DNA from: a virus
IMG/VR virus record: IMGVR_UViG_3300031576_000026
Location: 1 to 64,000 of that record
Reading direction: 5' to 3' (one strand)
DNA: 64,000 nt
Positions 52,111 to 62,633 of the stretch are shown here, piece by piece. The position numbers and the translations under genes were made by a program. Within the stretch, counting starts at the first letter, position 1, and every line of letters begins with the position of its first letter. The notes below the pieces were generated by a model that was not told where the DNA came from, did not search any database, and worked only from the letters and a program-made list of their open reading frames with translations.

Positions 52111-52458
52111 TCATACTTCTCGATTAATAGATCTATCTTCACTAAACCCATCCGGATATCTTTTGCGAAGTTTTTCTACATTAGCTTTCTTAATGTCATC
52201 CTCCTCAAATCCAAACATTTCGGAAAGAACTTCAAGATACCAGTAGCAATCTCCCATTTCACCCATCAATTGTTCTTTCATTTTATCATTAACATCATGG
52301 CCGTGAAACATAATTTTTTTAATCACGTTTGCCAGTTCCCCTGCTTCGCCTGTTAATCCTAGAGTTGCGTTTACTACTATTTCGTCTGGGTTTAGTTTTT
52401 GATTTAGAGTTCTTAGAACTTCGTCTCGGTAATTCATCATGTCCTTTCCATAGGTCAT
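52111..52458 (-). CDS. MazG-like nucleoside triphosphate pyrophosphohydrolase
   Basis: GLTGEAGE...KK..FHGH...EMGD..WY...N.EKL.KRYPDGF. Confidence 0.85.
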   Translation of the reverse strand: MTYGKDMMNYRDEVLRTLNQKLNPDEIVVNATLGLTGEAGELANVIKKIMFHGHDVNDKMKEQLMGEMGDCYWYLEVLSEMFGFEEDDIKKANVEKLRKRYPDGFSEDRSINREV

Positions 52459-52750
52459 CTTTCCCTATATTATTTTTTTCAAACTCCAGTAAAAAAAGCA
52501 AATTACATGCCGCATGCGCTAAGTGTGTTAAACCAGATTCCTTATCTATTCTGGTCATCCCACTAGAATTATATTTATAGAGGTGCCTAAATGTTGCATC
52601 TAAAATGCGACTCCAATCAAATCCTTCTCTCCAATTTTGCGCTGTATATTTACTTTCACCGTAGGTTAGAACTTCGGCTACTAATAATAATGCATCAGAA
52701 GGTAGAAGAGAACATCTGGGTTTTCCCTTATCAAACTTTACCCCACCCAT
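52319..52750 (-). CDS. dATP/dGTP diphosphohydrolase-like (DUF5664) protein
   Basis: KFDKGK....LLP...V..VL.YG..KY...NW..G......A..RH...D.ESGL.HLAHA. Confidence 0.8.
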   Translation of the reverse strand: MGGVKFDKGKPRCSLLPSDALLLVAEVLTYGESKYTAQNWREGFDWSRILDATFRHLYKYNSSGMTRIDKESGLTHLAHAACNLLFLLEFEKNNIGKDDLWKGHDELPRRSSKNSKSKTKPRRNSSKRNSRINRRSRGTGKRD

Positions 52751-55040: not shown

Positions 55041-55251
55041 TAATTCTTTTGTATTTTTCTAAATGAATTTCTAGTATTGATTGATTATTAATTATGCATT
55101 TATAAACGTCTTTTACCGGCACATACTTAAAATAACCAATCAACGCTTTTTTATTGGCATTGAATACATCTAAAATCTTTTCTAGATCTCTAACAATTAT
55201 TTTAGCTTTCTTATAATTTTTTAGGTCAAAAATCATCATCATCCACATCAA
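54988..55251 (-). CDS. hypothetical protein
   Basis: ORF track. Confidence 0.5.
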   Translation of the reverse strand: MMWMMMIFDLKNYKKAKIIVRDLEKILDVFNANKKALIGYFKYVPVKDVYKCIINNQSILEIHLEKYKRIIENRGNISESELEEIKK

Positions 55252-56224
55252 ATCCTTGTTTAATACCTAATTGTTGCTTTTTTGTTTGAAATTCCTTTTT
55301 GAAATATGATATTTCTTTCATAATACTATCTATTGCTTCTTGTGGAGTTATTTCATAAATTGCAGATCTAATTACAATCTCATGTAGATGGGCTGCTGTC
55401 AATTCACTATATTTTTTTTGCTTAATAATCTGTAAAGTTTCGTCTGGTATTTCTCCTTTACTGAAAAATTTAAAAAGTTCGTATCTGGCATTGGAATCCG
55501 GATAGTCCATTTTTATCTTATCATCAAATCTTCCCGGTCTATTGGTTATATTAGCCAAAAGATTTTCTGGGAAATTAGTAGTTGCTATGATGAATATTGG
55601 AATTTGGAATATTTTTTCTTTATTGTCTAATAAAGATAAAAGACTGCTCGTACTTTTTATTTTAGCATTTTCAGCTTCAACACCACCTATGTCTTCAGCC
55701 ACTAAGATAATTTTTTTAACTCCTTCCACATATTGAAAGCTCTTAAAGAAGTCTTTAACTTCAGACGGATCAATTTTATCAGTTGACCATAAAATAATAG
55801 CAGTTTTATTGTCTTTTGAATATTGTTGACAAACTTTAATTAAAGCTGTGGTTTTCCCCGTACCTGCGCTACCCCATAATAATACAGCCCGCCTTGGAAT
55901 TTCTATCCCTAATCTCTTATAAACATGAAGATTACGGAAAAAGCAATCTATTTTTTTAGTTAATTCTGTTACATTTACGAAATTTTCTAAAATAGAATCT
56001 GTAACAAACGAAGTAGATTCTAATTTTAAACCCTTTAACGTTTTTTGGATTGACCATACTCCAGGTTTAACCTGATATGGTTCTGGTTTATATTCCTCTT
56101 CGTGATAAATAAATTGAACAAAATCTCCTTCTGGTGTGACTGTACAAAAATCGCTTTCTTCAATCTTTTCATTTTCCTTTATGTCTAGTAATTTTTGTTT
56201 TCTGAGTAAAGTGAAATAACCCAT
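55226..56224 (-). CDS. AAA+ ATPase
   Basis: GSAGTGKT, LVAEDI, ATTN, RPGRFD second region of homology. Confidence 0.88.
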   Translation of the reverse strand: MGYFTLLRKQKLLDIKENEKIEESDFCTVTPEGDFVQFIYHEEEYKPEPYQVKPGVWSIQKTLKGLKLESTSFVTDSILENFVNVTELTKKIDCFFRNLHVYKRLGIEIPRRAVLLWGSAGTGKTTALIKVCQQYSKDNKTAIILWSTDKIDPSEVKDFFKSFQYVEGVKKIILVAEDIGGVEAENAKIKSTSSLLSLLDNKEKIFQIPIFIIATTNFPENLLANITNRPGRFDDKIKMDYPDSNARYELFKFFSKGEIPDETLQIIKQKKYSELTAAHLHEIVIRSAIYEITPQEAIDSIMKEISYFKKEFQTKKQQLGIKQGFDVDDDDF

Positions 56225-56226
56225 TA

Positions 56227-56403
56227 TTATTCTCTTCGATATTCTAGATATAGGTTAGCATCAATCACAACTTCTTCTCCGGTATCTTCTGATGTAAACT
56301 TAATCCATATACATTCTTTATCATGGTATAATACCAACATTCCTCCCCAACCAAATCCTGGCCATTGGCCATATAGATCATAATATCGTTTCTGGACTTC
56401 CAT
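56227..56403 (-). CDS. small hypothetical protein (58 aa)
   Basis: Manual translation MEVQKRYYDLYGQWPGFGWGG...; TAATG coupling. Confidence 0.5.
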   Translation of the reverse strand: MEVQKRYYDLYGQWPGFGWGGMLVLYHDKECIWIKFTSEDTGEEVVIDANLYLEYRRE

Positions 56404-57515
56404 TAATGAAATTCCGTTCCATTTTTTAATAAATAATAATCGGGATTTATCATCTTAACGATTTTTCTTCCTATTGGAGATATCTTCTCATTAATAGATT
56501 TAATAACTAATCCTTCATTCGTTTCATTTGATAATGGGTTTTGTCCAACTAAAATATTAGCCTGATTAATGTTAAAAGGCCCCACATATACAATTGGAAC
56601 TACGGGTAATTCCATGCGTTCTGCCATATCAATAAAATCCCAATGATCTAAATATTTATGTGTTCCATCTTCATCCACAAACATTATATCAAAGATATAT
56701 AATTTGTATTCTCCTCTAGCACATCCATAATTAAAATTCTTCTGTATTCCGTCTCCGACTATTTCTCCATATACCACATATCCTTCTGGGATTTTAGCAT
56801 CAAGATTATACTGTCTAAATATTTTACTATATACATCCTCTTCATAAAATCCCTTATGTTCTGATTTATCATGTATTTGAACATTATGGCTACCCCAAAC
56901 AAATTGCCATTTAGGTAAAAAACCAAAGAACTTTAGGATTTTTCTATATAGGGTATTTGCATCAAAAGGAACCCAGCCATATCTGGCATTGGTACCATGT
57001 AGTTTAGTAGTCATGACTACTGGTTCATTCTCAGTGAATAGATTGTTATACCACTTAATATTTTCTATATCGGTATATTTGCAAAAATATCTATTTGATT
57101 GTTTTTTAGATTTTTTTACATTGAGTTTACTTGGTAAGGATTCTTTAGCTGGTTCATATTTTTTTACTTGAAGAATTGAGGATACATCTTCTTCTAATTT
57201 ACAATTTTTATCGATAACTAATCCGGTATGATGCAAATCAACAATCATTCCTTGTGAGATAGCCCCTCTTATTTTTATTGATTTTACTCTAGATTTGGTT
57301 AATTTGATTTTAGAATCCGGAGGAAATAGTTTTTCTTCTAGATCCACAGGTAGAATAGAATCCACTGGAATATAGATAATAGGTTGACCCACCTTGTATA
57401 AATCCTTCTGTATTACTACCATCCAATCATATATTTTGGCAACAGATAAACGATCTGCATTTGGATGTGGTAAGATATCCTGAATTGTGGTTACTGGTAC
57501 TTTAAACGTACTCAC
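56403..57515 (-). CDS. RNA ligase (DRB0094/Rnl5-like) with N-terminal OB domain
   Basis: HPNADRL, KLHGTN (motif I), GEIVG.GIQ, IFDI, EGLVIK, K.INPDY. Confidence 0.85.
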   Translation of the reverse strand: MSTFKVPVTTIQDILPHPNADRLSVAKIYDWMVVIQKDLYKVGQPIIYIPVDSILPVDLEEKLFPPDSKIKLTKSRVKSIKIRGAISQGMIVDLHHTGLVIDKNCKLEEDVSSILQVKKYEPAKESLPSKLNVKKSKKQSNRYFCKYTDIENIKWYNNLFTENEPVVMTTKLHGTNARYGWVPFDANTLYRKILKFFGFLPKWQFVWGSHNVQIHDKSEHKGFYEEDVYSKIFRQYNLDAKIPEGYVVYGEIVGDGIQKNFNYGCARGEYKLYIFDIMFVDEDGTHKYLDHWDFIDMAERMELPVVPIVYVGPFNINQANILVGQNPLSNETNEGLVIKSINEKISPIGRKIVKMINPDYYLLKNGTEFH

Positions 57516-57880
57516 GCAGTCTCCTTATTGAAACCATTGGAATTTGAGTAATAAATATTCTTAATGCCGACATCTTTTATGAGCTGAAAACAAAAGGAGC
57601 AAGGCTTAGCTAAAGCCATCTGACTTGTTTTAGTTTCTCGGTAAACATATATATCACATCCATTCAGATCTTCTCTTCCAGCATTAAGAATTGCGTCTAA
57701 TTCAGCATGCAGCGTTTTCCATTTATTATTACTGCGCCTGTGTGTTCTATTCTTATTGAACCCCATTCCTATGATCTTATTCCCTTTAACTATAATAGCC
57801 CCCAATTTATGGGGTTTATAATTGCTCTTATAACTTAATTTTCTGGCTACATCAAAAAATCTAACCTTCATAATATCCAA
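57512..57880 (-). CDS. Zn-dependent cytidine/dCMP deaminase-family protein
   Basis: HAE ... KPCSFC. Confidence 0.85.
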   Translation of the reverse strand: MDIMKVRFFDVARKLSYKSNYKPHKLGAIIVKGNKIIGMGFNKNRTHRRSNNKWKTLHAELDAILNAGREDLNGCDIYVYRETKTSQMALAKPCSFCFQLIKDVGIKNIYYSNSNGFNKETA

Positions 57881-60636
57881 TCAATCGGTTTTACTTTATG
57901 CTTTGCAAGCCAATCATTGGTTTTTGAGAAATACTTTCCGCCTAGAAATCCTCCAGATTGATTTAAAGGAGAAGGATGATTTCCAGTTAATACCATTATT
58001 TTATCATGAATGGCTAATTTTGTCAATTTATCTTTAGCATATTTTCCCCAACATATAATAACTATAGGTTTTTTCAAGTTAACTAATTTCTTTAAAACAC
58101 AATCAGTGTATTGTTCCCAACCAATATTTGAATGTGACAAAGACTTTTCCTCTTCTATAGTTAAAATACTATTTAATAATAATACTCCTTGACTTGCCCA
58201 TGGACTAAGATCTCCACTAGAAGGAAAATTAATGTTTAGATCGGCTTGAAGTTCTTTAAATACATTTTTTAATGAGGCTGGAATTTTAGAATGACTAACA
58301 GAAAATGCTAACCCACAAGCATCTTTCTTGTTGGGATAAGGATCTTGACCTATAATAACCACTTTGGTTTTATCTGGGTTAAAATACTCAAATGCTTTAA
58401 AAATTTTATCCTTTCCCGGTAATATTGATTTTCCTGAAGATTCTTCTTTTTGAATAAAATCCAATGCTTTGGTTTTATACAAGCTCATTTCAAATTTAAG
58501 TAATTGATTTTGATGTTTTTTTAATGAATAATTAGGAAAAATTTTAGTGTCTAAAATAGTTGAAAATCTTTGTGCTGTTTTATGAAGCTTTTCCAAGAAT
58601 TTAGATTTACTATGATCACCATCGAAATCTTCTATTAGTGCTAAACTATTATCTGTTTTAAAATAACAATAAATCCTATCTCCTTCCACATAATCTGTTT
58701 CTTCTATTGCATCTCTAACTTTTGACTCATTGGTTCTTTCGGATGTTAAAGTTTTATCTGAAATAGTCATCCGTTTAACCCAGCGCTTAATATCTTTAAT
58801 ATCAAGTATTTCTTTAACATAATCTTCATAAATTTTCAAATAGCCATGTGTTTCTTTTATAATACCACCAACGATTTTCTCTAGAAATTCTCTGAGGGCT
58901 GGTTCTAGAGTGGGGCTTTTTAAAGCAGATCCTTTATATTTAATATCTCCATTTTCTTTATGAAGAACATAATTTTTACTTTTGATAACAATAAATTTCG
59001 GATAAAATCCATCATCGTCCCATCTAATTGTCTGAGGAAAATTCCCAGATAGTTCATCTTTTAATAATATTCTTTGTTCCTTATGTATAAAAGATCCATC
59101 CATATGGCCAAAAGATATACTATCTGTATCAACATTTGCTATGAGCATATTTCTAGAATTTACCCAGTCAATTCCCCTTTGTAATATCTCTCTGCCGTAA
59201 CGAGTAACCGTGGCTGCTCCTTCTCCATAATTAAAAGCCAATCCCGGAGCACCCATAAATCCATATAAAGAATTAATAAATATCTTTTCAGATTGCTCTA
59301 GATGTTTATAATAATCTTCTCCGGTATCTTGGGCAAGCCCTTTGTTTTTTAATCTCTCAGTTCTAAAATATTCTACTAAGTTTAAAAAATATTTATCGGG
59401 ATCTTTTTTCTCCGGATAGATTTTATATTCCATCATAATAGACGGATAAAGAGAAGCTATGTCAAGTTTTAAAATATTATTAAATATTCCCGGATTACCC
59501 CAAGAAATTGCTCCTTCAAATTCTGGTATAATATCAGCTTTGGGAATAGAGTGATCTTTCTGTAAATAAGATCTTAACATTATAGAATTTAATTGACTTC
59601 CGCTCGCACTCTGCATTGTGGCTTGGAAAGATTTGGGTATACTTTGAGCCATATAGAAATATGGAGGTATAAATTTATCAAAAAGAGTAAGAGAATCATC
59701 TGCATCGTGTATACAATAATCTTTAATTTTATCCCATTCTTGGGTTATTTTATAATTATCCCTTATTCGGGATGCATCATAAAAGACACGATCTTTATTT
59801 TCCCAGCCTTCTTGTTTAATAATTGCTTTTAATCCATAACTATCATATTTTTTTTCAACACTGTCGGCTTTGATAGCCAAAAACATTGTATCTATTATAT
59901 TTCTGCCATATATATAACAATCATGATAATGTAAATCTCTATTTCCGTCTACACGAAAATCTGATTGATATTTATCATTTATTTTCAGGCTGCTGCCATC
60001 CCTACCTATATCTAAACTTATATCGTATTTAGAAGCTATATAATTTAAATAAGGTAAATCATATCCAAAACAATTATGACCGAGAAGAATCGAAGGATCT
60101 ATTTTTCTAACCCAGGAGCACCAATCCTGTATCATGACTCCTTCATCTTCATAATCATCATATGCAAATAGTTTTCTGGTTATTGTATTACATCTCCTGA
60201 ATGTATTTGAAATTAATAGAAGTTTTGCGTCTTCAGTGTGTTTTAATGTCGTTGCTTCAATGTCAAAGGCCAATACGCCTATATCTGAAGGCTTCATATC
60301 TTTAAAATAACCGTAGCCTTCCTTAATCATTAAAGATTCTTTTGAATTATATATAGAAAAAGTATCTTGGCCTTTGTAGTGACGACGACAATCTAGAAAT
60401 TTTCTTTTATTATCATAGTATTGGATAAATCCATAATGTAAATCTCCATTTAATCTTTTCCATTTACCCTCTAATGACTTTGAGGACAATATCCAATATG
60501 TATTAGGAAAAAATTCACTGGTTACGGAACCATCCGGATTTTCTCTAAAAATTTCTACGCTATTATCTTTTGGTTCAATGGCCACGATATAGTTTATTGG
60601 TGATTTGCCAAAGATTAATGAATTGATATTATTCAT
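57868..60636 (-). CDS. family B DNA polymerase fused to a C-terminal family-1 uracil-DNA glycosylase
   Basis: Exo FDIE, HN..GYD, YC..D; Pol DIASLYPS, K.FINSLYG, DTDS; UNG GQDPY, GLAFS, WASQGVLLLN, HPSPL. Confidence 0.92.
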   Translation of the reverse strand: MNNINSLIFGKSPINYIVAIEPKDNSVEIFRENPDGSVTSEFFPNTYWILSSKSLEGKWKRLNGDLHYGFIQYYDNKRKFLDCRRHYKGQDTFSIYNSKESLMIKEGYGYFKDMKPSDIGVLAFDIEATTLKHTEDAKLLLISNTFRRCNTITRKLFAYDDYEDEGVMIQDWCSWVRKIDPSILLGHNCFGYDLPYLNYIASKYDISLDIGRDGSSLKINDKYQSDFRVDGNRDLHYHDCYIYGRNIIDTMFLAIKADSVEKKYDSYGLKAIIKQEGWENKDRVFYDASRIRDNYKITQEWDKIKDYCIHDADDSLTLFDKFIPPYFYMAQSIPKSFQATMQSASGSQLNSIMLRSYLQKDHSIPKADIIPEFEGAISWGNPGIFNNILKLDIASLYPSIMMEYKIYPEKKDPDKYFLNLVEYFRTERLKNKGLAQDTGEDYYKHLEQSEKIFINSLYGFMGAPGLAFNYGEGAATVTRYGREILQRGIDWVNSRNMLIANVDTDSISFGHMDGSFIHKEQRILLKDELSGNFPQTIRWDDDGFYPKFIVIKSKNYVLHKENGDIKYKGSALKSPTLEPALREFLEKIVGGIIKETHGYLKIYEDYVKEILDIKDIKRWVKRMTISDKTLTSERTNESKVRDAIEETDYVEGDRIYCYFKTDNSLALIEDFDGDHSKSKFLEKLHKTAQRFSTILDTKIFPNYSLKKHQNQLLKFEMSLYKTKALDFIQKEESSGKSILPGKDKIFKAFEYFNPDKTKVVIIGQDPYPNKKDACGLAFSVSHSKIPASLKNVFKELQADLNINFPSSGDLSPWASQGVLLLNSILTIEEEKSLSHSNIGWEQYTDCVLKKLVNLKKPIVIICWGKYAKDKLTKLAIHDKIMVLTGNHPSPLNQSGGFLGGKYFSKTNDWLAKHKVKPIDWIL

Positions 60637-62633
60637 TAACTACTCCAATGACTATCTGTGTTATTTTTATTTTCTGATTCCTTTTTTCTTCTTTTCAAGT
60701 CGTCTAATTTCTTTCTTTGTTCTTCCGTTTCAATGCTACTTATAATACCTCTAACTCCATCCCATAAAAAATCACCTTGCCATAAAGATCCAAATCTATT
60801 TTTAACAACAGAGATAGAAGCGAATTTGTCTTCACGGACCGTTGCTGGATTATATCCTTCTCTCCATAATCCTAAAATTAGAGAACAGCTTTGTTCTATT
60901 AAACTAGATCCTTTAACTGCTCTTAGAGTTAAGATTGGATCTGAGATATTGGGAGTAGCATGCTTCTGGGTTTGTAATAACAGTAAAACACAGGCAGACA
61001 TTTCATTAGCTAAATCTTTTAATTGGTTAGCAATAATCCCAGTATTTGCGATTGGATCACTATATGGTCCAGCTATGCATTCTAGATAGTCTACTATGAT
61101 TAATTTTACCTTTTGACTTGTACTTTCCTCGTGTTTTAAAATAATATTTCTCATGTCTGGTATAGTTAATCCAGATTTAAAGTTAAATCCAACATTTTTA
61201 TATTCTTCCTGGATTTGTTTAATAATTTTCTCTTTCTCTTTGGTATTATTCTTAAATACATCTAATACATGTTTAAAACTATGTCCGGTTAATTTTTGAA
61301 CTAACTTTGCGTAAATAATAGGAAGCCCCATATCTAAGCTAAAAAATACAGAACTTATACCGGATAGTGAAGCATTTCTTAAATAATTAAGAGATAGTGA
61401 TGTTTTACCACTTCCCGGAGCACCGACTAGTCCTACTAGGTTATACGCTAATAGCATTGCATTATCATCAAGTTCTTTAAGTCCAGTTTTAATTATATTT
61501 TGCTCATGGTTAACTGCAAAATTCGCAAACTGTTGATTAAATCTATCGAATGTAACACAAGGAGTTTCTTCCTCTTCGTCTGGACATTTATGATTGTCCA
61601 AGCTCTGGCAGTAATCTTTTAACCATCTATTAGATGGTGTATCATCTTTTTTACAACTATGTTGCCCTCCTCTCCAAGTATCTTTAAAGACGGCCCCTTC
61701 GATAATATTATTCCACAGTTCTTCTTTCGAGAACTTATTCTCTCCAGTTCTTTCAACATGTCTTTCAATAGCATCTTTACATAATCTATAAGTTGCGGTA
61801 TTAGAAAACCCCATAGTCCGATAGGTAGATGCTAAAATCATTAAAGCTATATCTCTGCTACCTTCTTGAAAGTAACCTTGCGATAAAGCCCACTTACAGC
61901 TTCTCCAATGCTTAGGTTTTTGTAACCAATCAAGCCCTTCAGTTTTTAGTTGGATGGATCGAACCACGGGAACTATTTGCCCATGTTCAAGCAAAGCTTT
62001 ATTAATTATAAAAGGATGGTACCATTTAATAATATCATCTATTTCTACATCACAATTAGTTTTAGCCAATTCTCTAACTTGATTTGCATCCCAACTATTT
62101 AATTCTGTTAATGTTATTGGAATTTTGTAAAGACCCGAAGCGGCGTGTTTAGAAAATGGAATGCGGAATACTCTTTGATTATCATAAATTTTACTATCAA
62201 ATGTTCGTAACTCTTTCCCTAAATTAGTACAAATTAATCCTACAATATTAACAGGAAGATCTTTATTAAGATCAACCATGACACTGATGCCTTTATGTCC
62301 CGAAAAACATATTTGAATATTCTGTTCTATCATTCCCAAATCAAGCAATTTTTTACAGAGTAGTCTAGCATCATCTATTGCATTTTGAAGATTATCAACA
62401 CTATCAAAATCAAACCAAAGTCTATCTGTTTTACTATCGGTTATTCCAGATAAAGTATGTGTTTTTTGCCATTGCTCATATTGTTCTTGGGTATATTTAG
62501 CCATGGAGATAAACCATGGGTTATTTAGATCTTTAATATGCTTATATGGAGATTCATCGGTGGGAATAAGCCAGTGATATTTTAAATCGGATGTAAGCTT
62601 TCGGTATTCCATAATATATATACATATATACAA
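60636..62633 (-). CDS. AEP primase-polymerase / SF4 (DnaB-like) helicase fusion
   Basis: WFDFD, FSGHKG, R.FRIP.S.H..SGLYKIP; GAPGSGKT, FSLDM, IIVDYL, VKNRFG. Confidence 0.88.
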   Translation of the reverse strand: MYICIYIMEYRKLTSDLKYHWLIPTDESPYKHIKDLNNPWFISMAKYTQEQYEQWQKTHTLSGITDSKTDRLWFDFDSVDNLQNAIDDARLLCKKLLDLGMIEQNIQICFSGHKGISVMVDLNKDLPVNIVGLICTNLGKELRTFDSKIYDNQRVFRIPFSKHAASGLYKIPITLTELNSWDANQVRELAKTNCDVEIDDIIKWYHPFIINKALLEHGQIVPVVRSIQLKTEGLDWLQKPKHWRSCKWALSQGYFQEGSRDIALMILASTYRTMGFSNTATYRLCKDAIERHVERTGENKFSKEELWNNIIEGAVFKDTWRGGQHSCKKDDTPSNRWLKDYCQSLDNHKCPDEEEETPCVTFDRFNQQFANFAVNHEQNIIKTGLKELDDNAMLLAYNLVGLVGAPGSGKTSLSLNYLRNASLSGISSVFFSLDMGLPIIYAKLVQKLTGHSFKHVLDVFKNNTKEKEKIIKQIQEEYKNVGFNFKSGLTIPDMRNIILKHEESTSQKVKLIIVDYLECIAGPYSDPIANTGIIANQLKDLANEMSACVLLLLQTQKHATPNISDPILTLRAVKGSSLIEQSCSLILGLWREGYNPATVREDKFASISVVKNRFGSLWQGDFLWDGVRGIISSIETEEQRKKLDDLKRRKKESENKNNTDSHWSS

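Follow-up and report, generated by a model that had tools for sequence, protein, structure and literature searches.

A phage family B DNA polymerase joined in frame to a family-1 uracil-DNA glycosylase

The phage DNA polymerases published as fusions with a uracil-DNA glycosylase (UDG) are family A enzymes with an N-terminal family-4 UDG (PMC10201439, PMC13697223, PMC3201878). The SP15-like UDG-PolA enzymes of phages YerA41, phiLo and SP-15 excise deoxyuridine during replication, with the UDG placed so that it encounters the template before the active site does (PMC13697223). For the UDG domain of the N4-like enzymes a purely structural role has been proposed (PMC10201439). The family B polymerases of poxviruses and herpesviruses associate non-covalently with UDGs of the UNG type (PMC13697223, PMC4889955); in mpox, the UNG E4 is in contact with the family B polymerase (PMC13697223), and a processivity role, proposed for the UDG domains of PolA, has been demonstrated for vaccinia D4 (PMC3201878, PMC4889955). 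Here we describe a gene that is a genuine in-frame fusion of a phage replicative family B polymerase (PolB) with a family-1 UNG. It lies in a stretch of 64 kb (positions 1 to 64,000, hereafter the window) of the IMG/VR virus record IMGVR_UViG_3300031576_000026, an 80,291-bp phage record with a CheckV completeness estimate of 92%. A first-pass annotation of the window, made from the letters of the DNA and its open reading frames, had pointed out the fusion and had stated that the known phage fusions involve family A polymerases, in agreement with the published cases (PMC10201439, PMC13697223, PMC3201878).

The polB-ung gene occupies 57868..60636 on the minus strand and forms a single open frame of 922 aa without an internal stop; its product is referred to as P0001. 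The polymerase module comprises residues 1-716 (58489..60636, minus strand) and contains the N-terminal, 3'-5' exonuclease, palm/fingers and thumb regions. It is followed by the family-1 uracil-DNA glycosylase domain, residues 717-922 plus the stop codon (57868..58488, minus strand). Pfam places DNA_pol_B_exo1 at residues 161-272, DNA_pol_B at 444-631 and UDG at 749-910, each above its curated cut-off. The fusion junction, ..LLKFE-MSLYK.., lies at 58474..58503 on the minus strand with the DNA sequence TTTGAAATGAGC, in which TGA occurs in both frames other than that of PolB and ATG now stands in the PolB frame. This in-frame ATG encodes M717 and has no Shine-Dalgarno sequence, whereas many genes of the phage carry AAGGAG. 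The open frame, the Pfam matches and the motif positions given below bear out the first-pass reading of one 922-aa open reading frame with complete exonuclease and polymerase motifs, no stop at the junction and no clear internal ribosome-binding site. In the AlphaFold2 (AF2) model of P0001, a continuous confident helix (residues 706-733) spans the junction. The predicted template modelling scores of 0.82 versus 0.75 leave the orientation of the domains unsettled.

The polymerase module contains all the motifs of a proofreading family B enzyme. Exo I (FDIEAT, 124-129), Exo II (GHNCFGYDLPYL, 186-197) and Exo III (YCIHDADDS, 307-315) follow the DxE/NxxxFD/YxxxD pattern, and motifs A (DIASLYPSIM, 392-401), B (KIFINSLYGF, 451-460) and C (NVDTDS, 501-506) follow the family B pattern. 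The Pfam scores are 35.8 for DNA_pol_B_exo1 and 49.1 for DNA_pol_B, each against a cut-off of 23. The module shares 47-58% identity with unfused phage PolBs of ~715 aa. Its AF2 model, with a predicted local distance difference test (pLDDT) value of 94.6, takes the fold of solved family B enzymes, and Foldseek matched it most closely to the archaeal PolBs 9N, KOD and Tgo (4k8x, 8s84 and 5vu9) at E values of ~1e-34 with template modelling scores, normalized by target, of 0.71-0.73. In many relatives PolB is interrupted or split just before motif C (DTDS, near P0001 residue 495) by ~30 to 1070 nt. Such cases were seen in loci L006-L011, L013-L015 and L030 and in proteins P0248, P0252 and P0385, and two of the split C-terminal halves carry a UNG fusion.

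Residues 718-922 matched the solved family-1 UNG 3tr7 with an E value of 3.4e-49 (PDB phmmer) and passed the NCBIfam equivalog cut-offs for UNG (NF003589, 240.7 against 223; NF003592, 239.9 against 162; TIGR00628, 214.7 against 185.75). The motifs GQDPY (763-767), GLAFSV (775-780), LLLN (819-822) and HPSPL (887-891) are intact. The domain keeps the water-activating D765, the thymine-excluding Y767, the stacking F778, the uracil-reading N822, the catalytic H887 and the intercalating L891. The earlier assignment of a family-1 UNG of ~205 aa with intact GQDPY and HPSPL thus holds, and by its residues the domain appears catalytically intact and is predicted to excise uracil. Phylogenetic analysis placed it in a phage-specific clade marked by GQDPYP..DACGLAFS, with a support of 98 in the Shimodaira-Hasegawa-like approximate likelihood ratio test (SH-aLRT). 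The clade has 17 sequences. Five are fused proteins, eleven are standalone UNGs of 190-233 aa, and in the remaining one the UNG bears another N-terminal extension. A UNG of this clade with a different N-terminal extension of ~120-140 aa, which has no Pfam match, is represented by L030 (9533-10558, plus strand) and P0242 and lies 2.5 kb from a split PolB.

We considered it very improbable that a one-base assembly or sequencing error had joined two genes in the contig. The fused and unfused arrangements differ in reading phase only, beside short A/T runs, and the sole public run that contains the stretch, a cave metagenome (run X1), is probably the contig's own source; no RNA run is among the public runs listed as containing the stretch. 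However, a 19.7-kb Logan contig from run X1, at ~10x, has 0 differences and 0 gaps over 57512-60636. This second assembly, made by an independent assembler, agrees across the junction, and therefore the frame is no artefact of a single assembler. Against an error also stand four other fused proteins from other samples and a PolB tail that can be aligned to its relatives right up to the junction.

The likeness to the SP15-like UDG-PolA enzymes lies in a replicative phage polymerase covalently joined to a uracil glycosylase; in the SP15-like system the glycosylase is catalytically competent, and uracil excision coupled to replication has been demonstrated (PMC13697223). That system is family A with the UDG on the N-terminal side, whereas P0001 is family B with a C-terminal family-1 UNG. 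SP15-like phages have modified thymine and encode PolX and a ligase alongside, whereas the window gives no sign of base modification and the ThyX encoded in the same genome passes its equivalog cut-off (TIGR02170, 95.7 against 87.9). The N4-like and SPO1-type UDG-PolA enzymes also combine a phage polymerase with a UDG-superfamily domain, for which a processivity role has been discussed (PMC10201439, PMC3201878), but they are family A enzymes with an N-terminal family-4 UDG, and the N4-like ones have lost the catalytic residues. With its family B core and its C-terminal family-1 UDG, P0001 falls outside the UDG-PolA group (SP15-, SPO1- and N4-like). In arrangement it resembles the poxvirus holoenzyme (vaccinia E9-A20-D4; mpox F8-A22-E4) and the herpesvirus pairing, where a family B replicase works with a UNG-type glycosylase at the replication fork. 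Those complexes are non-covalent and belong to eukaryotic viruses, and that of poxviruses needs a bridging subunit (A20/A22), whereas P0001 is one covalent chain and so is not of the poxvirus type. The fusion is a natural one-chain version of the pox- and herpesvirus polymerase-UNG pairing.

The architecture is uncommon. A word-indexed search of 5.8 billion clusters was made with the whole of P0001, and among its 120 best PolB relatives (47-58% identical, ~715 aa) a UDG was found only on P0005 (929 aa) and P0006 (934 aa). The same kind of search with the UNG part only, over proteins of 507-1614 aa, gave 268 matches. Among the 120 listed, a PolB partner occurred only in P0001, P0005 and P0006; the other partners were endonuclease III, PIF1 helicase, Fpg, Smr and apurinic/apyrimidinic (AP) endonuclease. 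Two further fusions were found among shorter proteins, P0248 (440 aa) and P0252 (437 aa). Because both start just before the DTDS motif, they represent a UNG attached to the C-terminal half of a split polymerase. In an exhaustive HMMER scan of 1.84 billion representative proteins with residues 561-922, only two representatives, P0005 and P0252, span the PolB thumb and UNG. Overall we found five distinct PolB-UNG proteins, three on a whole PolB and two on a split C-terminal half. P0005 comes from an 83-kb contig, and P0005, P0006, P0248 and P0252 are all from samples other than that of the window. The ESM Atlas holds two viral clusters (50 and 81 members, ~1030-1073 aa) with PolB and Pfam UDG; an ESM Atlas search with the UNG domain alone returned standalone UDG clusters only. 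IMG/VR single-protein scans gave no match for the queries P0001 and P0251 and only unfused relatives for P0005. PolB-UDG fusions as a class are thus not unique, but those with a family-1 UNG at the C-terminus are rare and, as far as the searches reach, restricted to this phage family. A full-text literature search, whose coverage is incomplete and which gives absence of evidence only, found no description of a fusion between a family B polymerase and a family-1 UNG.

Several candidates from these searches were rejected. The two-stretch matches of the exhaustive search were tandem UNGs and not PolB-UNG. A tblastn match, H24 (MT836508), seemed to reach into the PolB tail, but this extension was spurious, as the record holds a standalone UNG of 224 aa; loci L017-L023 likewise hold standalone UNGs. 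Ten long open reading frames (677-849 aa) that end in UNG, scanned from IMG/VR loci, were all PIF1 helicase-UNG proteins. A PIF1 helicase with a C-terminal UNG, in some cases with an N-terminal RNase H1 domain, is a much commoner fusion of a replication protein with UNG than PolB-UNG. Long open reading frames ending in UNG were seen in the IMG/VR loci L035, L038, L042, L043, L047, L048, L051, L055, L069, L077, L081, L098 and L100, several of which come from metagenome-assembled genomes of giant viruses. The metagenome proteins P0361, P0364, P0368 and P0379 have two tandem family-1 UNG domains each, and P0363 combines endonuclease III with two UNG stretches.

A related locus indicated how the fusion may have arisen. 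L029 (IMGVR_UViG_3300031576_000029) is a 76.6-kb IMG/VR contig that carries the primase-helicase, PolB, UNG, a small open reading frame, the deaminase, another open reading frame and the RNA ligase. Its named genes stand in the same order as in the window, its PolB is 50% and its UNG 63% identical to the corresponding parts of P0001, and its UNG belongs to the same clade. In L029, PolB (715 aa) and UNG (204 aa) are two proteins whose stop and start overlap as ATGA at the very point of the window's junction, whereas the window reads through in frame. As TTTGAAATGAGC has ATG in the PolB frame and TGA in both others, the fused and unfused forms are one base of phase apart in the final codons of polB. 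The fusion probably came from two neighbouring genes with coupled translation, when a one-base phase change in the last polB codons removed the stop. The first-pass annotation had named a stop at this point in relatives as something that would speak against the fusion. Some relatives, such as L029, do have the stop, other fused proteins exist, and the frame of the window stands. The stop in L029 therefore marks the fusion not as a fixed invention but as a variant that a coupled gene pair gives rise to easily and repeatedly. Four standalone UNGs of the clade lie on contigs of the same length in bp (76730, 44119, 34045 and 18190) as the contigs of unfused PolB relatives; the pairing of unfused PolB with UNG (for example P0011 with P0244) is based on these equal totals alone. 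Complex prediction for PolB and UNG of L029 gave a score of 0.00, which is evidence in neither direction.

Directly downstream of the fusion is a gene for a small zinc deaminase of 119-122 aa with the motifs HAELDA and PCSFC (57512..57871, minus strand), probably a deoxycytidine monophosphate (dCMP) deaminase. The gene and its HAE/PCxxC motifs are as first described. The overlap of 13 nt given for it assumes a TTG start, whereas an ATG at 57871-57869, the likelier start, shares 4 nt with the UNG stop (ATGA) and gives a protein of 119 aa. The protein matched Pfam dCMP_cyt_deam_1 (PF00383; 2e-16, 60.2 against a cut-off of 25) and the PHROG dCMP deaminase family, and its best solved matches are all dCMP deaminases (2w4l, 4p9c, 1vq2 and 2hvv, with human, cyanophage S-TIM5 and T4 among the sources). 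It fails the equivalog thresholds (ComEB TIGR02571, 28.6 against 219) and, at 119 aa, is far shorter than typical enzymes. From these matches it looks like a dCMP deaminase that feeds ThyX and not an editor of DNA or tRNA.

Comparative data support a link of UNG to this deaminase, as had been proposed. We examined ten related phage records together with the window's genome (G000), and a positive control within the same searches worked. Three genomes have all of UNG, deaminase and ThyX, namely that of the window, G006 (the genome of L029) and G007 (that of L030). G010 (76% complete) has the deaminase and ThyX without UNG, and G009 has only a weak deaminase-like match. G001-G005 and G008 lack all three genes, and four of these six genomes are 96-100% complete. 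The two genes for deaminase and ThyX travel together, as they co-occur in G000, G006, G007 and G010 and are both absent in six relatives, and UNG occurs only in relatives that have both. No trimeric dUTPase was found in the 92%-complete genome.

It had also been proposed that the fusion counters a host dCTP-deaminase defence. The fused UNG, together with the deaminase, would then protect the phage against a host system that floods the cell with dUTP or depletes dCTP (anti-phage dCTP deaminase), or against another uracil-based restriction. Nothing that we found supports this proposal, and we regard it as highly improbable. The zinc motif of the deaminase does resemble the model of anti-phage dCTP deaminase, weakly and below threshold (20.6 bits against a cut-off of 400). 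However, no defence or anti-defence context was found, the protein groups with dCMP deaminases and travels with ThyX, which is the ordinary thymidylate pathway, and excision of massive uracil would fragment the phage DNA and not save it.

We lean, with modest confidence, towards polymerase-tethered uracil excision as the function of the fusion, which would guard the phage DNA against the phage's own dUMP/dUTP pool. The conversions among dCMP, dUMP and dTMP and the formation of dUTP are established biochemistry. Within these AT-rich phages, a subclade would have gained its own route from dCMP through dUMP to dTMP, and UNG would have joined to keep uracil out of the phage DNA. The dCMP deaminase would make dUMP for ThyX; through host kinases, and without a phage dUTPase, dUTP may rise and uracil may be incorporated. 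In RB69 and archaeal family B enzymes, the C-terminal end bears the clamp-binding tail and lies beside the duplex that leaves the polymerase. Tethered at this end of the thumb, UNG might move with the replisome and remove uracil where DNA is made, a position that would suit scanning of the duplex just synthesized or might simply keep UNG concentrated at the fork. The resulting abasic sites may be handled by host repair enzymes and perhaps also by the neighbouring ligase-family enzyme of the phage. That UNG is active, that it works at the fork and why it would do so are our inferences.

Several observations weigh against tethered excision. Throughout the UNG clade, two residues depart from the usual pattern: the His that follows GQDPY is replaced, mostly by Pro, and so is the Ser of the WGS loop, mostly by Lys. 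P0001 has Pro and Lys at these positions (its residues 768 and 864); poxvirus D4 also has Pro following its DPY. As abasic sites generally stall family B polymerases, removal of uracil from the template in front of the enzyme could do harm. The phage genome showed no AP endonuclease of the ExoIII or EndoIV type. The co-occurrence is based on 11 records, some of them incomplete. The remaining points come from the phylogeny and the junctions. In the PolB tree, the three full-length fusions lie within one 17-member subclade, alongside PolBs from genomes with separate UNGs. The nearest PolB of P0005 is the unfused P0020 (SH-aLRT 99), and fused forms stand scattered among unfused ones; the UNG tree has the fusions at three places. 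The length and the sequence of the junction are not conserved among the fusions. The PGW helix at the UNG N-terminus is kept in P0005, P0006 and P0252 and is absent from P0001 and the short standalone UNGs, and the junction of P0005 is a low-confidence linker (AF2 pLDDT below 50 at 719-724), whereas that of P0001 is modelled as a rigid helix. Judged by these models, the fusions appear to share tethering, with no common geometry indicated. Because fused and unfused forms are interspersed and the junctions differ, fusion or fission occurred more than once and not as one old event, and selection for the covalent link may be weak.

The same observations suit a near-neutral fusion, in which the stop was lost by a one-base change, the domains work as the separate proteins do and the link adds no property. 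The ATGA overlap of L029 makes fusion and fission one-step events, the two states are mixed in both trees, the junctions vary with a linker predicted to be flexible in P0005, and the fused forms are few, with five distinct proteins. We nevertheless consider this explanation rather unlikely. At least three divergent lineages (52-55% identical to one another) have retained the fusion with both domains intact, and it is also kept on the C-terminal half of split polymerases. The unfused pair is still adjacent and translationally coupled, which suggests joint action, and polymerase-UDG coupling has a proven function elsewhere (PMC13697223).

Another explanation holds that UNG is mainly a built-in processivity or DNA-holding module that replaces a sliding clamp, as vaccinia D4 does through A20, with the glycosylase activity secondary. 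No sliding clamp was recognised among the replication-module genes scanned, where the nearest sign is a weak clamp-loader-like AAA match at 55226-56224, and UNG sits at the polymerase end where other family B enzymes have their clamp-binding tails. Such a role has been proposed for phage PolA UDG domains (PMC3201878, PMC10201439). This explanation appears quite improbable to us: the catalytic residues are kept in every member of the clade, fused or unfused, whereas they have decayed in N4-like PolA (PMC10201439); most relatives have no UNG and yet replicate genomes of equal size; and the occurrence of UNG with the deaminase and ThyX points to uracil chemistry. A broader formulation combines the two roles. 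A family B replicase that has no clamp would repeatedly have gained a family-1 UNG at its clamp-binding end, and the UNG would serve as both a duplex-holding processivity module and a proofreader of uracil in newly synthesized DNA, a minimal, single-chain and convergent counterpart of poxvirus D4-A20-E9 with fused and unfused forms coexisting. We regard this formulation as unlikely and offer it tentatively.

The feature is real, rare and evolutionarily informative. Polymerase-glycosylase coupling was recently shown structurally for phage family A enzymes, whose authors propose its extension to family B (PMC13697223), and the family B cases of coupling known so far are multi-protein complexes of pox- and herpesviruses. 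The present phage family offers small counterparts of this pairing in bacterial viruses, in three natural states, namely no UNG, adjacent coupled genes and covalent fusion, in some cases to one half of a split polymerase. This series suits asking what benefit the tethering of UNG to a replicase brings, and whether synthesis precedes or follows the action of the glycosylase. The case also illustrates cleanly how genes fuse through the loss of an overlapping stop and start, and a possible practical yield is a one-chain proofreading polymerase with built-in uracil removal.

The window has a G+C content of ~33% and encodes portal, major head and tail proteins, which identify the uncultured phage as tailed. 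From ~50 kb on, its minus strand carries a dense module for replication and nucleotide metabolism, whose members include a RecA/UvsX-like protein, ribonucleotide reductase, a PD-(D/E)XK nuclease, ThyX, an AAA ATPase, an endonuclease VII/HNH-like protein, a metallophosphoesterase and a MazZ-like pyrophosphohydrolase, all on this strand. Adjacent genes of the module overlap by 1-4 nt, as in TAATG for the primase stop and PolB start and GTGA for the deaminase stop and ligase start. Directly upstream of PolB, with its stop overlapping the PolB start, lies a primase of the archaeo-eukaryotic (AEP) type fused to a DnaB-like helicase (60636..62633, minus strand). It matches Pfam DnaB_C (1.4e-23), weakly LigD_Prim-Pol, and the PHROG primase and DnaB-like helicase families, and it is syntenic upstream of PolB in 12 of the 16 related loci.

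Directly downstream of the deaminase is a nick-sealing enzyme of the RNA-ligase family with an oligonucleotide-binding (OB) fold and an adenylyltransferase domain (56403..57515, minus strand). It matches Pfam RNA_ligase, the PHA02142 OB fold and PHROG 968, and its GTG start, which overlaps the deaminase stop, is preceded by an AAGGAG Shine-Dalgarno sequence. The enzyme could seal the nicks that remain after uracil repair. It keeps its position downstream of UNG and the deaminase in both the window and L029 (L029:11976-13067). A 332-aa AAA+ ATPase at 55226-56224 (minus strand) has weak partial matches only, to CDC48/FtsH-like proteins, to the model of the anti-phage ATPase IteA and to clamp loaders. 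A 143-aa protein at 52319-52750 (minus strand) matches Pfam PF18909, the N-terminal domain of a MazZ-like dATP/dGTP diphosphohydrolase, at 3.9e-30. This MazZ-like gene raised the idea of a Z-genome, which we rejected: a PurZ homologue is absent from the genome, and the phage is therefore probably not a 2-aminoadenine phage.

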